Assembly (NCBI GenBank): GCA_944386555.1
Contig: CALXBN010000061.1
Coordinates: 15,255 to 79,254, forward strand
Direction of reading: 5' to 3'
DNA: 64,000 nucleotides
Origin: an uncultured Ruthenibacterium sp.
Lineage (GTDB): Bacteria; Bacillota; Clostridia; Oscillospirales; Ruminococcaceae
Shown: piece after piece, positions 3,862-8,190 of the stretch
How positions within the stretch are numbered: the stretch's first letter is position 1
Layout of the letters: every line of letters starts with the position of its first letter
Notes under the pieces: generated by a model
Told to the model about the DNA's origin: nothing
Databases searched by the model: none
The model's input: the letters and a program-made list of their open reading frames with translations, nothing else
Translations under genes and position numbers: made by a program

Positions 3862-5088
3862 TCATTCCCTCCATGGCACCCAGCGGAATTCCCGGCACAG
3901 CACCGTCGCGGCGAAGTACCGCATGGCATCCATCGCGTGGTCGTACTCCTTCACCACCGCGTCCTCTGTCTTTTTGTCGTCCCATCGGTACAGCCCGGCC
4001 TCCCGGATGGTGTTTTCGCACCGTGCGTGGATTTTCAGCCGCCCGCACTGCATCAGGCCGGCGCACACGTTGATGCCCGGCACCACCGCGTTTTCCGCCC
4101 CGCGCACAACAAAGCGCCCGTGGCGTCGGATGGTCTCGATGAAGCTGGCCGCCGACGGGTCCACGATCACCGCTTGGATGTACCGCCCCGCCGCCAGCTT
4201 TTCCAGCGCCGCGTAGTGCTCCTCGTCGGTGCGCTGGGCGCCGGCCTCCCGGCTGTCGTAGTACGCCTCGTCCACCAGCAGCGCCCGCCCGTTTGCCACG
4301 CACCACAGCTGCATGGCGCAGGGGTTGTGCGTTCCGTAGTCGACGGAAAGAAAAAAGCGGCCCGCCAGGGTGGATGTGTCTGTATCCACCACCGGATGCC
4401 ACTGCGCGAAGCCTTCGTATACCAGCCCCTGGGCCACCACCCACCGGCCCAGGATGTACCGCTCGTAAAACACGCCGCTGTACTGGCTCTCGTACCGCGC
4501 CCGGGTCTCGTCGCTCAAAGCGGGGTTGTCCGCCAGGTCAAAGTGAATGTACAGCGCGTTGTGCTTTTCCGGCTGGCGGATCCACTCCCGGTAGTACCAG
4601 TGCATGGGGCTGGCCGGGTTCGAGGAGAACCAGAACCGCGCCCCGTCCACGCTGCACCGGGCCAGGGCCTGGTTGAAAAAGCTCTCGGGCATCAGGGGAA
4701 CCTCGTCCAGCAGCACGCCCGCCAGCGTGCGCCCCTGGATCAGCATGTAGCTGCTCTCGTCCTTGCCGCCGAACACCTCGAAGCGGTTCACCCGCGCGCC
4801 CTTGCGCACCTCCAGGGTCTTGTCCGTCCGGCGCCAGGCCATTTCGTACCCCTTGCGCCGCCCGTGGGCCATCAGGCGGTAGGGCTGGATGATGTTCTTC
4901 ACGGCGGAATCCACCGTTTTGCCGCATATGCCGAAGGTCTGCCCGGAAAAATTCTCCATGGCCCAGTCCACAAAAGCCACCGTCATCAGGCTGGTTTTGC
5001 CCGTTCGGATGGCCCCGTCGCAGATCAGCGCCGTGTAGGGGGAGTAGGGGAAGGACAAAATCCGCAGCTGCTTGTCACTGATTGCCAT
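3862..5088 (-). CDS. terL: Terminase large subunit (PBSX family)
   Basis: Walker A DGAIRTGKT, Walker B GVLLDEVP, SSNP motif, DYGTHNP and DHAMDAMRY nuclease motifs; start refined to MAISDKQ. Confidence 0.93.
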   Translation of the reverse strand: MAISDKQLRILSFPYSPYTALICDGAIRTGKTSLMTVAFVDWAMENFSGQTFGICGKTVDSAVKNIIQPYRLMAHGRRKGYEMAWRRTDKTLEVRKGARVNRFEVFGGKDESSYMLIQGRTLAGVLLDEVPLMPESFFNQALARCSVDGARFWFSSNPASPMHWYYREWIRQPEKHNALYIHFDLADNPALSDETRARYESQYSGVFYERYILGRWVVAQGLVYEGFAQWHPVVDTDTSTLAGRFFLSVDYGTHNPCAMQLWCVANGRALLVDEAYYDSREAGAQRTDEEHYAALEKLAAGRYIQAVIVDPSAASFIETIRRHGRFVVRGAENAVVPGINVCAGLMQCGRLKIHARCENTIREAGLYRWDDKKTEDAVVKEYDHAMDAMRYFAATVLCREFRWVPWRE

Positions 5089-5518
5089 ACTGCCCCTCCG
5101 CATATTCCCGCAGCGCCCGGCTCAGCGGGTCCTCCGGCGGCTGCTCTTCGGCCGCGCGGCTTTGCTCCAGCCAGCGGAAGTTGTGCTCCAGGCTGAACTG
5201 GGCGCCCCGCGCGCCGTCCCGGTCGTACAGGCGGCGCTCGGCGTATTCCTCGCACCGGGCCTTCGCGCGCGTTATCGTGTTACAAAATGCCTTTCGGCCC
5301 TGATAGTCCAGCAGCTGCTTTCGCCCGGTAAACCCCAGCGCCAGCGCCAGGCCCGTCACCGTGGGCGGGTGGGCGTCCACAATCACCGGCGCGCCGTATT
5401 TGTCGGTGACGGCCTTGCCCTCCCCGTCCAGCAGGGGCGTGCCGGCGCATTCCTCGAAGTAGGCGTCGATGGCCTGCTGCAGCTGCGCTGCGGTTTTGTA
5501 TTTCAGCGGCCGCGCCAA
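5075..5518 (-). CDS. terS: Terminase small subunit (DNA-packaging gp3-like)
   Basis: TTG start at 5518 after AGGAGGTG; RP-KY-T...IDAYF...PTVTGLALALGF pattern; overlaps the terL start. Confidence 0.78.
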   Translation of the reverse strand: MARPLKYKTAAQLQQAIDAYFEECAGTPLLDGEGKAVTDKYGAPVIVDAHPPTVTGLALALGFTGRKQLLDYQGRKAFCNTITRAKARCEEYAERRLYDRDGARGAQFSLEHNFRWLEQSRAAEEQPPEDPLSRALREYAEGQYGNQ

Positions 5519-5596
5519 CGGCGTCACCTCCTGTCGGCCCACCATAACGAAAGGGCCGCCCCGGCGGGGCAGCCCTTCGCAAAATTCCACATTAAC

Positions 5597-5640
5597 AGTA
5601 TACCACAGAAAACGGGAAAAAACTTCCCCTCTTTTTCCCA
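5597..5640 (-). promoter_or_regulatory. Putative late promoter upstream of terS
   Basis: Extended -10 TGGTATACT (5605-5597) without a consensus -35, preceded by GGGAAAAA/GGGAAG purine runs; position typical of activator-dependent late promoters. Confidence 0.4.
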
Positions 5641-5697
5641 ACTTTTCCACCGGACAGAAAAAGCGGAAGAAAATTGCTTCCCTTCCGCCGAATCTCT

Positions 5698-6129
5698 TTA
5701 TTTTGCGGTGTCATCATCGTCTATCAGCTGTGGCGGTGTGATGAGCGGAATCATCGACGACCACTTCATAATCGAGGCGATCAGGAGGGACATATCGTTC
5801 GGCGCAAACGAAACAAACTGCGCTTTGTTTTCCTCGACAGTTCTTACAAGCTGGTCAAAATCCAATGAATCTACATCGCTTTTTATATGAGCCTGAATCT
5901 GGTATGTGATTTTAATGCTATAGTTTTCATCTTTTGAAATGAGTTCTCTGCTGAGTGTCGCAAGGAAAATATTGGTTTTATTTTTGACGTTTGGTTTGAT
6001 CGAATAATTTCCAAGCCGGTCCTTAATGTTGAGGTTTAAGTGCTGTCCAACAGTCATGTCCAGTTGATTGCTAAAATTAATACCGATCAGCACAATAGAA
6101 GCTTCAGAAAATGCGTCATTCAATTTCAT
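5698..6129 (-). CDS. SecB-like chaperone
   Basis: 143 aa; four alternating hydrophobic beta-strand segments, then an amphipathic helix and MSLLIASIMKWSSMIPLITPP, matching the SecB-family C-terminal ...PxLxLPP pattern; AAGGAG RBS; cotranscribed after hicB. Confidence 0.7.
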   Translation of the reverse strand: MKLNDAFSEASIVLIGINFSNQLDMTVGQHLNLNIKDRLGNYSIKPNVKNKTNIFLATLSRELISKDENYSIKITYQIQAHIKSDVDSLDFDQLVRTVEENKAQFVSFAPNDMSLLIASIMKWSSMIPLITPPQLIDDDDTAK

Positions 6130-6144
6130 CGTCTCACTCCTTCG

Positions 6145-6624
6145 TTAACTGATTGCAAAGTTGTAAGGGTTTGTTTCCGGAAAAGGCAAACTTTTTGTTG
6201 CAAGCAGTTGGTCTTTTGACTGGGGATTAGAAACTACGCTGGAAAACACCTGGACAGGAATGCTCATGGTTGAAGGGATGAACTCAGGTTGTCTTACCAG
6301 TTCATCTTCCACTGCCTTGTTGATCCACTCATTTAGGCTGATCCCATCGTCCATCGCTGCATAATAAGCCTTTTTGTGCAAATCTGGTGTTACGCGGACA
6401 TTGAAGCTTCCAGAGAACTGGCGCTCGGGTTCTTTCCCAATGTCTTTGCACATTTCCAAGTAATCATCAATCAGGGCGTGAAACTGCGGTTCCACTTCAT
6501 CTGCAGATTCGCAGGCAAAAGACAGCGTATCCGATAATCCGTGGATCCTTCCAACCAAAAGGCGATCTTCTGTACTGTATTCAATCGTCGCTGCATAACC
6601 TTTGTACTTCAATACGTTGCTCAT
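6145..6624 (-). CDS. hicB: HicB-family antitoxin with a ~45 aa C-terminal extension
   Basis: MSNVLKYKGYAATIEYS...GRIHGL, FSGSFNVRV..DLHKKA..A...GISLNEWI (RHH domain), followed by an extra tail ending PFPETNPYNFAIS. Confidence 0.9.
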   Translation of the reverse strand: MSNVLKYKGYAATIEYSTEDRLLVGRIHGLSDTLSFACESADEVEPQFHALIDDYLEMCKDIGKEPERQFSGSFNVRVTPDLHKKAYYAAMDDGISLNEWINKAVEDELVRQPEFIPSTMSIPVQVFSSVVSNPQSKDQLLATKSLPFPETNPYNFAIS

Positions 6625-6881
6625 AATAGCCCCTTCTCTCTCAGATGCTTAATCATGTCATCTACTGCATACAGTTTCAATTCATCTCCCGGATGTGGTG
6701 CGTGTGTCCTGAAAATAGCCTTCGTTTGAGGGTTATAGTATGCGATTCTTGATCCGGATGTTTTTCCTTGGTTATACCGCACATAACCAAAGTGAGTAAA
6801 GAGCTGGTCGGCTTCCTGAAGCGTGAAGTCTCTTGGCCTACTCAATATGCGCGCTTTCAGTTTATCAATTCTTCCTCCCAC
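6621..6881 (-). CDS. hicA: HicA-family toxin (mRNA interferase)
   Basis: GTG start at 6881; RPRDFT...FGY...GKTSGSR...HAPHP..ELKLY motif; ATGA overlap with hicB. Confidence 0.88.
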   Translation of the reverse strand: MGGRIDKLKARILSRPRDFTLQEADQLFTHFGYVRYNQGKTSGSRIAYYNPQTKAIFRTHAPHPGDELKLYAVDDMIKHLREKGLL

Positions 6882-6930
6882 GCCCCCACATCCTTCCTGC
6901 ATACTGCAACTACGATTCAGTTGCAATCTT

Positions 6931-6960
6931 ATTATATGCAGATTTCTACGTCAATGTCAA
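6931..6960 (-). promoter_or_regulatory. Consensus sigma-A promoter of the hicA-hicB-secB-like operon
   Basis: TTGACA (6960-6955), 18 nt spacer, TATAAT (6936-6931). Confidence 0.7.
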
Positions 6961-6984: not shown

Positions 6985-7422
6985 TTACACCTCCACCACG
7001 CCGTACCGCGCCAGGGTGAAGGCCCGCAGGGCGGCGTCCTTGGTGCGGTACACCTGGCTTTGCTCCATGCCCCAGGCCTCGGCCAGGGCCTGCACGTGGC
7101 CCGGTGCGCGGCAGATGTAAAAGCGGGTCAGCACGTCCCGCTGCACGTCCGTCAGCGTGGCCAGCCCCCGCTCCACGGCGGCCACCTGGCGGCGGGCCAG
7201 GCGGTAGGCCTCGCGCTTGCGCTGCAGCTCGTCCAGCGCGCTGATCAGCCGCTCCTCGCCGGTGGAGCTTCCGCCCTGCACGGACACCGCGTCGGCCGCC
7301 GGGCTGCGGGTGCCGTACACCTTCGCCTGCAGCGCGGCAATCTCCCCGGCCAGGCTCTCCAGCGCCGCCTTGCGCCGCTGGTGCTGGGCCAGATCGTTGG
7401 CGGCCTCTTTCTTCCAGTCCAT
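6985..7422 (-). CDS. Phage late transcriptional activator (ArpU/DUF1492-like, sigma-70 region 4 fold)
   Basis: MDWKKEAANDL...; C-terminal LTDVQRDVLTRFY...EQSQVYRTKDAALRAF helix-turn-helix; typical position upstream of terS. Confidence 0.75.
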   Translation of the reverse strand: MDWKKEAANDLAQHQRRKAALESLAGEIAALQAKVYGTRSPAADAVSVQGGSSTGEERLISALDELQRKREAYRLARRQVAAVERGLATLTDVQRDVLTRFYICRAPGHVQALAEAWGMEQSQVYRTKDAALRAFTLARYGVVEV

Positions 7423-7519
7423 CGTCATCACCTCCCTTCGTGCCGGCCGTTTCCGCCGCCCTGCCCCCACACCCGGCAGCCCGGCCGGGCGGCCGGCAGC
7501 CCCGCAAACACCAGCGCCC

Positions 7520-7924
7520 TCACGAGAGCGCCTCCAGGTACACCCAGATGCCTGGGGCGGCGGCCCAGAACTTTTCGCACAGCTCGCTGGCCACTTGGGC
7601 GTCGTCGGCCCAGAAGCCCAGGGCGGTCATTGTGTCCTTCAGGGCCTTCTGCAGGTTGTCGGTGTCGGGGCGGGTGGTTTTCCACTCCCCGTCGGCGTGG
7701 CCGCCGGCCAGGGGGAACAGCCACTTGACGGCCAGCCGCACAGGGCCTTTCAGCGGCGCGGCGGGCCGGTGGGGCGCCAGGTGGGCGTGCAGCTTGGCCC
7801 GGGCCGCGCGCAGCCCGGCGCTGTCGTGCAGCACGGCCCGGGGGCGGCCGTCCTTCAGGTAGGCGTGCAGCTGCTTGTTCTGGTGGGTCGCCGTGGGCGG
7901 GATCATGGGCAGGAAAAATTGCAT
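7520..7924 (-). CDS. rusA: RusA-family Holliday junction resolvase
   Basis: Start MQFFLPMIPPTATHQ; TRPDTDNLQKALKD and WADDAQV acidic catalytic motifs. Confidence 0.85.
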   Translation of the reverse strand: MQFFLPMIPPTATHQNKQLHAYLKDGRPRAVLHDSAGLRAARAKLHAHLAPHRPAAPLKGPVRLAVKWLFPLAGGHADGEWKTTRPDTDNLQKALKDTMTALGFWADDAQVASELCEKFWAAAPGIWVYLEALS

Positions 7925-7959
7925 GGCGGGATTCTCCTTTCTTTTTTTGGCGCCCGTGT

Positions 7960-8190
7960 TTGGGAGGGGGTTCCCCGGGTGTGGGGGCGGCTGCAGGCCC
8001 CCACACCGGGGACACCCAAACACAAACGCATGTTTGCTTATATATATAAGGCTATTTTGCATGCAAAAAATAGCGGTCATAGCGGCTATTTTGCAAAAAT
8101 CGGCGTCGTGCACGGCCTTTGCGATAGCGGCCATTTTGCCAAAAATATACGAACCGTAAAGAGAAATTGAACGAATTGTACAGGCGTGGC
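7960..8190. repeat. Putative phage replication origin (AT-rich iterons plus hairpin)
   Basis: ATAGCGGCTATTTTGCAAAAAT (8079-8100), ATAGCGGCCATTTTGCCAAAAAT (8124-8146), a third ATAGCGG at 8070, an inverted GCTATTTTGC-AT-GCAAAAAATAGC and a GGTGTGGGGG/CCCCCACACC hairpin, just downstream of the primase-helicase. Confidence 0.5.

Follow-up and report, generated by a model that had tools for sequence, protein, structure and literature searches.

A candidate HicAB-type toxin-antitoxin-chaperone cassette in a prophage of an uncultured Ruthenibacterium

The cassette and its genes

The 64,000-nt window analyzed here, from contig CALXBN010000061.1 of an uncultured Ruthenibacterium sp. (Ruminococcaceae), carries a prophage, and within it lies a sharply bounded island of low GC content that holds three coupled genes: hicA, hicB and a third gene whose product has a predicted SecB fold. 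This is the gene content of a toxin-antitoxin-chaperone (TAC) system, and the evidence for such a reading is set out below. All positions refer to the window, and L-numbers are labels of the loci compared with it. The GC content of the cassette is 43.4%, against 64.7% and 68.2% in its 2-kb flanks and 65-68% in the prophage around it, and the GC content at third codon positions is 0.43-0.48 in its genes, compared with 0.79-0.93 in the adjoining phage genes. The genes follow the order toxin, antitoxin, chaperone, with one promoter ahead of them and one terminator behind them; hicA and hicB overlap in the sequence ATGA, and the third gene begins shortly after hicB (Table 1). The promoter is constitutive-looking. 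An earlier note, made by reading the letters of the window, had described an AT-rich island with its own TTGACA-18-TATAAT promoter and three coupled genes, and each of these elements was found where it had been placed. At the position where that note had put a late promoter, ahead of terS, there is only a -10 box resembling TG-n-TATACT, without a -35 box.

A palindrome, TGCAACT-N7-AGTTGCA, adjoins the promoter and has a single match within the window, where 0.05 would be expected by chance. In 34 other HicAB loci of several phyla the shorter form TGCAAC-N9-GTTGCA stands shortly before hicA; in loci L023-L098 it lies some 290-320 nt ahead of the hicB start. The loci that bear it include both TACs and plain two-gene HicAB pairs, and are distributed among Bacillota, Bacteroidota (Pontibacter, Flavobacterium, Chitinophaga), Nitrospirota and Erwinia. 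The palindrome looks like a deeply conserved operator of the HicB subfamily with a ribbon-helix-helix (RHH) domain. It is probably the site at which that domain would bind for autorepression, and since it is conserved upstream of hicA, HicB probably autoregulates the promoter.

The toxin and antitoxin genes belong to a canonical type II family, HicAB. HicA matches Pfam PF07927 with 32.1 bits, against a gathering cut-off of 27, as well as phrog_8887, annotated "toxin" (E=1.3e-14). Its start is uncertain, the frame being open to TTG 6926, and GTG 6881 is likely: both the alignment of syntenic homologues and the preceding AGGAAGGA box favor it. In metagenome contigs L145-L150 about 360 nt are left without a called gene where hicA lies, and the gene was probably missed because of its GTG or TTG start. 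HicB matches PF05534, of RHH type, above the gathering score (E=5.4e-21); residues 1-109 match the HicB-like antitoxin family phrog_9151 (E=3e-37), residues 72-112 give weak matches to Arc-like repressors, and both domains (residues 1-110) are modeled with high confidence.

The HicA subfamily deviates from the known enzymes at the active site. A near-invariant arginine (SGSR) is aligned with the catalytic His28 of Yersinia pestis HicA3 (SGSH, PDB 4p78), in an alignment that is weak (E=0.04), and the region of residues 43-64, numbered from the GTG start, contains a near-invariant H-x-P-H-P motif which is absent in HicA3. In E. coli HicA the catalytic histidine of the G-S-H motif is His24. As far as so weak an alignment can tell, the G-S-H motif is missing from the HicA of the window, and among its homologues that of L018 alone keeps a G-D-H motif. 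The chemistry of this HicA may thus differ from that of the textbook enzyme. Taken further, the same replacement could mean that the cassette is no working toxin system at all, HicA having lost its catalysis and HicB serving only as a regulator, or the whole being a decaying remnant; the eight metagenome contigs in which gene callers leave hicA uncalled would fit such a state. This is very unlikely, however. The arginine and the H-x-P-H-P motif are near-invariant across distant hosts, which argues that HicA is under selection, and in at least eight contigs from several samples all three frames are uninterrupted and identical. In addition, the N-terminus of the toxic HicA of Methylomonas methanica (Mmet), which can be read from a published primer as MSAKLRI..., appears to resemble this subfamily (PMC5105189).

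Table 1. Positions of the cassette features and of the neighboring prophage genes in the window
Feature	Position	Strand	Details
Low-GC island	5662-6960	-	sharply bounded, inside prophage
Cassette promoter, sigma-70/SigA-type	6931-6960	-	TTGACA (6960-6955), 18-nt spacer, TATAAT (6936-6931); 12/12 consensus matches
Palindrome	6905-6925		TGCAACT-N7-AGTTGCA (7+7 bp), immediately downstream of the -10 box
hicA	6621-6881	-	86 aa from GTG 6881; frame open 6621-6926, 101 codons
hicB	6145-6624	-	159 aa; N-terminal HicB domain, ribbon-helix-helix domain, C-terminal tail
HicB tail	6148-6294	-	HicB residues 111-159
Tail motif TKSLPFPE	6175-6198		HicB residues 143-150
Third gene	5698-6129	-	143 aa; 15 nt after hicB, AAGGAG before ATG
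Intrinsic terminator	5652-5689	-	12-bp stem (5689-5662) and T-run, directly after third gene
Second hairpin	5613-5640		with T-run
Late transcriptional activator-like gene	6985-7470	-	161 aa, 74% GC; phrog_248 E=4e-7, phrog_8834; upstream flank
RusA	7520-8134		upstream of activator-like gene
terS (terminase small subunit)	5075-5650	-	PF16677 E=1.9e-15, phrog_606; downstream flank
terL (terminase large subunit)	3862-5103		after terS

The third protein and the HicB tail

The third protein is acidic and ends in ...IPLITPPQLIDDDDTAK. Sequence searches place it poorly: it has no match in Pfam, PHROGs or PADLOC, a single weak match below the cut-off, to an unrelated family, in NCBIfam, chance-level matches in the PDB by phmmer and profile searches, and no match in 50,697 GenBank phage records. 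A word-indexed search of 5.8 billion proteins returned one copy that is 99% identical and nothing else, and a HMMER scan of 1.84 billion cluster representatives produced 13 relatives at E<=0.001. An AlphaFold model built with the resulting alignment (predicted local distance difference test score, pLDDT, 87.9; predicted template modeling score, pTM, 0.81) consists of four long antiparallel strands followed by helices. In a Foldseek search of the PDB with this model, ranks 1-22 are all of SecB type, comprising Rv1957 with its chaperone-addiction (ChAD) peptide, SecB of Haemophilus influenzae and of E. coli (1fx3, 1ozb and 1qyn are among the matches) and two SecB-like Streptococcus proteins of unknown function; past rank 22 the probabilities and TM-scores collapse. 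The best match is Mycobacterium tuberculosis Rv1957 (5mtw), with E=3.3e-4 and a TM-score of up to 0.61, and the best matches in a library of viral structures are phage proteins annotated as SecB. The predicted fold is thus that of SecB-type chaperones, and the third gene is a candidate for a chaperone of the SecB^TA-like kind.

In sequence, the connection to SecB is transitive only, running through a second clade. The profile of the third-protein family (A4, 25 sequences) matches that of eight third proteins from other HicA-HicB-X operons (A5) with a hhalign probability of 93.9%. Three of the eight A5 members match Pfam SecB below threshold (best E=4.5e-5), and A5 aligns with the SecB proteins of E. 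coli and H. influenzae over 121 columns (E=1e-4).

HicB continues for some 49 residues past its RHH domain and ends in ...PFPETNPYNFAIS, whereas its homologues in two-gene loci end at 106-127 residues, and this tail is a candidate ChAD region. HicB tails are poorly conserved, and in their alignment a motif of two hydrophobic residues, then proline, serine or aspartate, then phenylalanine recurs, as SLPF in the window and as VVPF, IIPF, VIPF or VIDF elsewhere. A read-through fusion of HicB and the chaperone was modeled, the genes being in frame and the TAA read as glycine, with a block alignment of three naturally paired rows that drew on natural in-frame hicB-chaperone fusions (L071, L047). 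Both folded parts of this model are confident. Most of the tail is modeled as disordered, with pLDDT under 50; confidence rises at residues 144-150 (KSLPFPE), a short strand spans HicB residues 143-146, and this local rise is suggestive at most.

A link between tail and chaperone also emerges from a comparison of genomes. In contigs taken from one genome per species, the surroundings of the 80 best HicB relatives were examined and the genes called. Where HicB has at least 140 residues, 16 of 19 loci contain a coupled SecB-like open reading frame (ORF) downstream; where it is shorter, none of about 59 does. The coupled ORFs encode 124-153 residues and start between -37 and +4 nt from the hicB stop; twelve match the A4-family hidden Markov model (E 1e-15 to 2e-7), the other four being members of the A5 clade. 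By Fisher's test p=6e-14, a value that overstates the case, as related genomes are not independent. Three long-tailed HicBs have no chaperone gene (L020, L029, L093). The tail of the first is of a different type, charged and helical. The second (147 residues) has a truncated tail of Lachnospiraceae type and lacks the third gene, and the same pattern of truncated tail and missing gene is seen in L059, where the HicB start had been miscalled; the tail type truncated in both is that of Lachnospiraceae or Clostridium, and these two loci look like decayed TACs. The third, L093, is an unexplained exception. As judged by this comparison, a long HicB tail is strictly linked to a coupled SecB-like gene.

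A search started from the chaperone is less biased, and it showed the family to be rare: within the class it was present in 3 out of 398 other genomes, within the phylum in 6 out of 400. It lies downstream of a tailed HicB in L017, L018, L155, L156 and L157. In L152 (1474-3087, minus strand) a member of the clade follows an MqsA-type antitoxin of 253 residues (PF15731, E=5e-14) with an extension of about 130 residues, so that a further Bacillota genome would hold a TAC of MqsRA type. The same locus contains an MqsR-like ORF of 119 residues with no Pfam match. TAC chaperones are known to serve several antitoxin families (PMC3581621, PMC5105189), and the presence of one clade beside both HicB and MqsA is therefore as expected of them. 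In the named genome records surveyed, the A4 clade was confined to Bacillota (Lachnospiraceae, Clostridium, Eubacterium, Acetatifactor, Erysipelotrichaceae). A weak family match in L019 (G317:C10:55121-55339; E=3e-4) is broken by TGA and TAA and is probably a pseudogene remnant. A 143-residue ORF of L001 was rejected as a chaperone, being a spurious arginine-rich antisense frame inside a called gene.

The SecB-like protein might still be a phage or general chaperone, acting on virion proteins or in secretion, that happens to lie beside a two-component HicAB whose tail is irrelevant to it. Solitary SecB-like genes do exist in phages and Firmicutes (PMC3581621), phage "SecB" proteins are among the structural matches, and for two family members from complete genomes of one genus (L153 and L154, the latter examined by BLAST only) neither HicA nor HicB was detected in the vicinity. 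In L153 (1465-2658) the gene adjoins two paralogous membrane proteins of 99 residues with two transmembrane segments each, and no recognizable toxin-antitoxin pair is present; these genes may encode solitary SecB-like chaperones with another client. Such an account is nevertheless highly improbable for the cassette in the window. The third gene is translationally coupled within one promoter-terminator unit, its counterparts accompany long-tailed and not short HicBs in the survey above, loci with a truncated tail have lost the chaperone gene, and the clade also follows the long-tailed MqsA of L152. That the cassette is a genuine TAC, its chaperone serving the HicB tail, is considered very likely on this analysis.

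Prophage setting and relation to known systems

The cassette is autonomous and was acquired recently and horizontally, and it occupies an accessory slot between the late activator-like gene and terS. An identical HicB occurs on at least eight metagenome contigs of several samples. In each of the six places listed HicB and the chaperone are followed, as far as the contig permits, by terS, terL and the portal gene (annotated as GP3_package, Terminase_6N and portal), and in most of these the activator-like gene lies upstream. Of 43 viral contigs with a related terS (53-74% identity), not one carries any of the cassette genes, be it hicA, hicB or the third. The slot is empty in L135, whose activator homologue abuts terS with a gap of about 19 bp (~2590-2610); in L134 (2081-2878) it is filled by a gene of 265 residues with a DNPPF motif and an AAAER repeat but no Pfam match, possibly a DNA methyltransferase. 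The slot is thus variable among related phages, and since these carry the same terS without the cassette, the cassette has been inserted.

Homologous cassettes take up comparable places in other prophages, standing before terS (E=7e-57) and terL in L041 and before a terS-like gene in L017, and following an endolysin gene in L033 (Eubacterium aggregans) and holin and amidase genes in L014. The possibility that the cassette is exclusive to prophages was rejected, as many copies are chromosomal, with genes of purine synthesis, histidine kinases and transporters as neighbors. The occurrence of both chromosomal and prophage copies indicates that the cassette is mobile and not restricted to phages.

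A position directly before terS, at the boundary of the late operon, recurs in three unrelated prophages, and this invites the idea that the cassette serves the lytic cycle of its own prophage: late structural proteins of that phage would titrate the chaperone, and HicA would act as a timed shut-off of host mRNA. The support for this is positional only. The cassette is insulated from late transcription by its own constitutive-type promoter and its terminator, related phages do without it, other copies are chromosomal, and the prophage TACs already known are triggered by foreign phages. Of the explanations considered, service to the lytic cycle is the most improbable.

As for the host, its genome encodes Spo0A (E=8e-46), a match obtained in B. 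subtilis alone among 14 control genomes, and no Pfam SecB match was found at E<=1 in the assembly, which is 93% complete. The earlier note had proposed a HicAB-type TAC moron in a Bacillota prophage, Bacillota generally lacking housekeeping SecB, and had staked this on a SecB fold in the third protein and on a ChAD-like tail in HicB. The predicted fold, the behavior of the tail in the comparative data (16/19 loci against 0/~59) and the lack of a Pfam SecB match in this 93%-complete assembly all bear the proposal out.

Two parts of the note did not find support. The abortive-infection role is an analogy with HigBAC and CmdTAC, and the system is not of an uncharacterized kind. Sala et al. had listed HicAB-SecB TACs as early as 2013 (PMC3581621), and in 2016 Bordes et al. 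validated one of them, Mmet-TAC of M. methanica MC09 (HicA Metme_2813, HicB Metme_2812 and SecB^TA; PMC5105189). The cassette shares with Mmet-TAC the gene order, the HicAB family with an RHH-type HicB, and a third protein of SecB type; even the length of HicB, 159 residues, is the same, and the C-terminal extension of the Mmet protein is also about 40 residues long (ChAD residues 119-159). The differences lie in the host, a gammaproteobacterial chromosome in one case and a Bacillota prophage in the other, and in the chaperone, which here is unseen by Pfam SecB and forms a separate sequence clade. The two tails are dissimilar in sequence, which is the rule among ChADs. Mmet-TAC is experimentally validated, whereas the cassette in the window is known from sequence and models.

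The M. tuberculosis TAC, HigB1-HigA1-Rv1957 (PDB 5mtw; Guillet et al. 2019, PMC6377645), has the chaperone that the third protein resembles most in structure (chains A-D, E=3e-4 to 1.3e-3, TM-scores 0.5-0.6). Its antitoxin tail renders the antitoxin dependent on the chaperone, a logic that would apply here as well, but its toxin-antitoxin pair is of the HigBA family with a ribosome-dependent RNase, the identity between the chaperones is about 8%, and its context is stress response and not a prophage. Closer in setting are the prophage-borne TACs of E. coli, HigBAC (NT1F31), CmdTAC and MqsRAC, which defend against phage (10.1101/2024.02.24.581848, PMC9519451, PMC11618068). Titration of the chaperone by a phage structural protein is the trigger proposed for these systems, and in HigBAC that protein is the lambda tail protein gpV. 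These too are three-gene accessory cassettes of prophages with a SecB-like chaperone, but their toxins are different (HigB, the ADP-ribosyltransferase CmdT, and MqsR), and defense and trigger have been demonstrated for them and are drawn by analogy for the present cassette.

The cultured lambdoid coliphages mEp234, HK106 and mEp506 carry hicA-hicB-gp36 in the rexAB slot, between cI and N. In mEp234 (L151, NC_019715.1 26874-28004) the genes encode a HicA of 84 residues, a HicB of 152 residues and an overlapping "hypothetical protein" of 141 residues. Its third protein belongs to the A5 clade (hhalign probability 96%) and not to A4 as that of the window does, its HicB is 37% identical to the one studied here, and the host and the insertion slot differ. 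Among the relatives of the cassette, that of mEp234 lends itself to laboratory work. The literature searched contained no test of HicAB-type TACs for phage defense.

Role of the cassette and its significance

Overall, an autonomous, horizontally acquired HicAB-type TAC in an accessory slot of the prophage is probably the best explanation of the locus. It may be pictured as working in the following way. The lysogen would transcribe the operon, by analogy with the M. tuberculosis and Mmet TACs, and HicB would repress it by way of the palindrome, which overlaps the start of transcription. The SecB-like protein would bind the hydrophobic HicB tail, probably around TKSLPFPE (by analogy with PMC5105189 and PMC6377645), and HicB so bound would stay soluble and protected from proteases and would neutralize the HicA RNase. 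On superinfection, an abundant unfolded structural protein of the incoming phage would compete for the chaperone, by analogy with HigBAC, CmdTAC and MqsRAC; HicB would then be lost, HicA would cut RNA, and the infection would be aborted.

Several points weigh against this reading. Chaperone dependence, toxicity and defense are predictions from sequence and models, and the fusion model yields local confidence without coordinates or predicted aligned error, so that a contact between tail and chaperone is not seen in it. By sequence the third protein does not fall within PF02556: this Pfam SecB family has no match to it at E<=1, nor to ten members of its family at E<=10, and the direct hhalign comparison of A4 with a two-sequence profile of the E. 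coli and H. influenzae SecB proteins is not significant. With an arginine apparently placed at the catalytic histidine position, the RNase activity of HicA is not to be assumed. The three long-tailed HicBs that lack a chaperone gene and the two family members without a detected HicA or HicB likewise depart from the expected association. Among the PADLOC v2.0.0 models none of the three proteins has a match at E<=1, and more than half of the homologous cassettes surveyed are chromosomal and not in prophages.

The last two of these points bear on the selected role and are also what would be expected if the cassette, as a genuine HicAB-SecB TAC, were kept for selfish maintenance or stress response, through post-segregational stabilization or slowed growth under proteotoxic stress, and not for defense. 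The first TACs to be characterized, those of M. tuberculosis and Mmet, were indeed described as stress-responsive (PMC3581621, PMC5105189). On the other side, such cassettes turn up repeatedly at moron positions of prophages that are not related to one another: the window, L041 and L017 have theirs ahead of terS, L033 and L014 behind the lysis genes, and mEp234 in the rexAB slot. Phage defense has been demonstrated for three other types of TAC (10.1101/2024.02.24.581848, PMC9519451). A role in maintenance or stress is regarded as rather unlikely, and anti-phage exclusion as quite possible, a tentative assignment. A bolder combination can also be drawn, in which a Bacillota-specific lineage of TAC chaperones, invisible to current models, would serve both HicB and MqsA; HicA would have moved its active site (arginine, H-x-P-H-P); the insertion between late activator and terS would be functional; and the chaperone would sense the burst of virion proteins, of a rival phage or of its own prophage, and so switch an RNase in hosts without housekeeping SecB. 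Taken as a whole, this is improbable.

The cassette opens no new mechanism, its kind having been known since 2013-2016. What it appears to add is modest: a Pfam-invisible chaperone clade, so far in Bacillota alone, and a HicA subfamily with a putative histidine-to-arginine replacement. It offers a test case of about 1.3 kb for the part of a HicAB-type TAC in phage defense, for the reading of a tail motif by a minimal SecB fold, and for a HicA that lacks the canonical catalytic histidine. Should the cassette work as proposed, systems of this sort would be under-counted in surveys of defense and toxin-antitoxin systems, the chaperone clade being invisible to Pfam, PHROGs, NCBIfam and PADLOC, and chaperone-gated toxin-antitoxin immunity would extend to the prophages of gut Clostridia.

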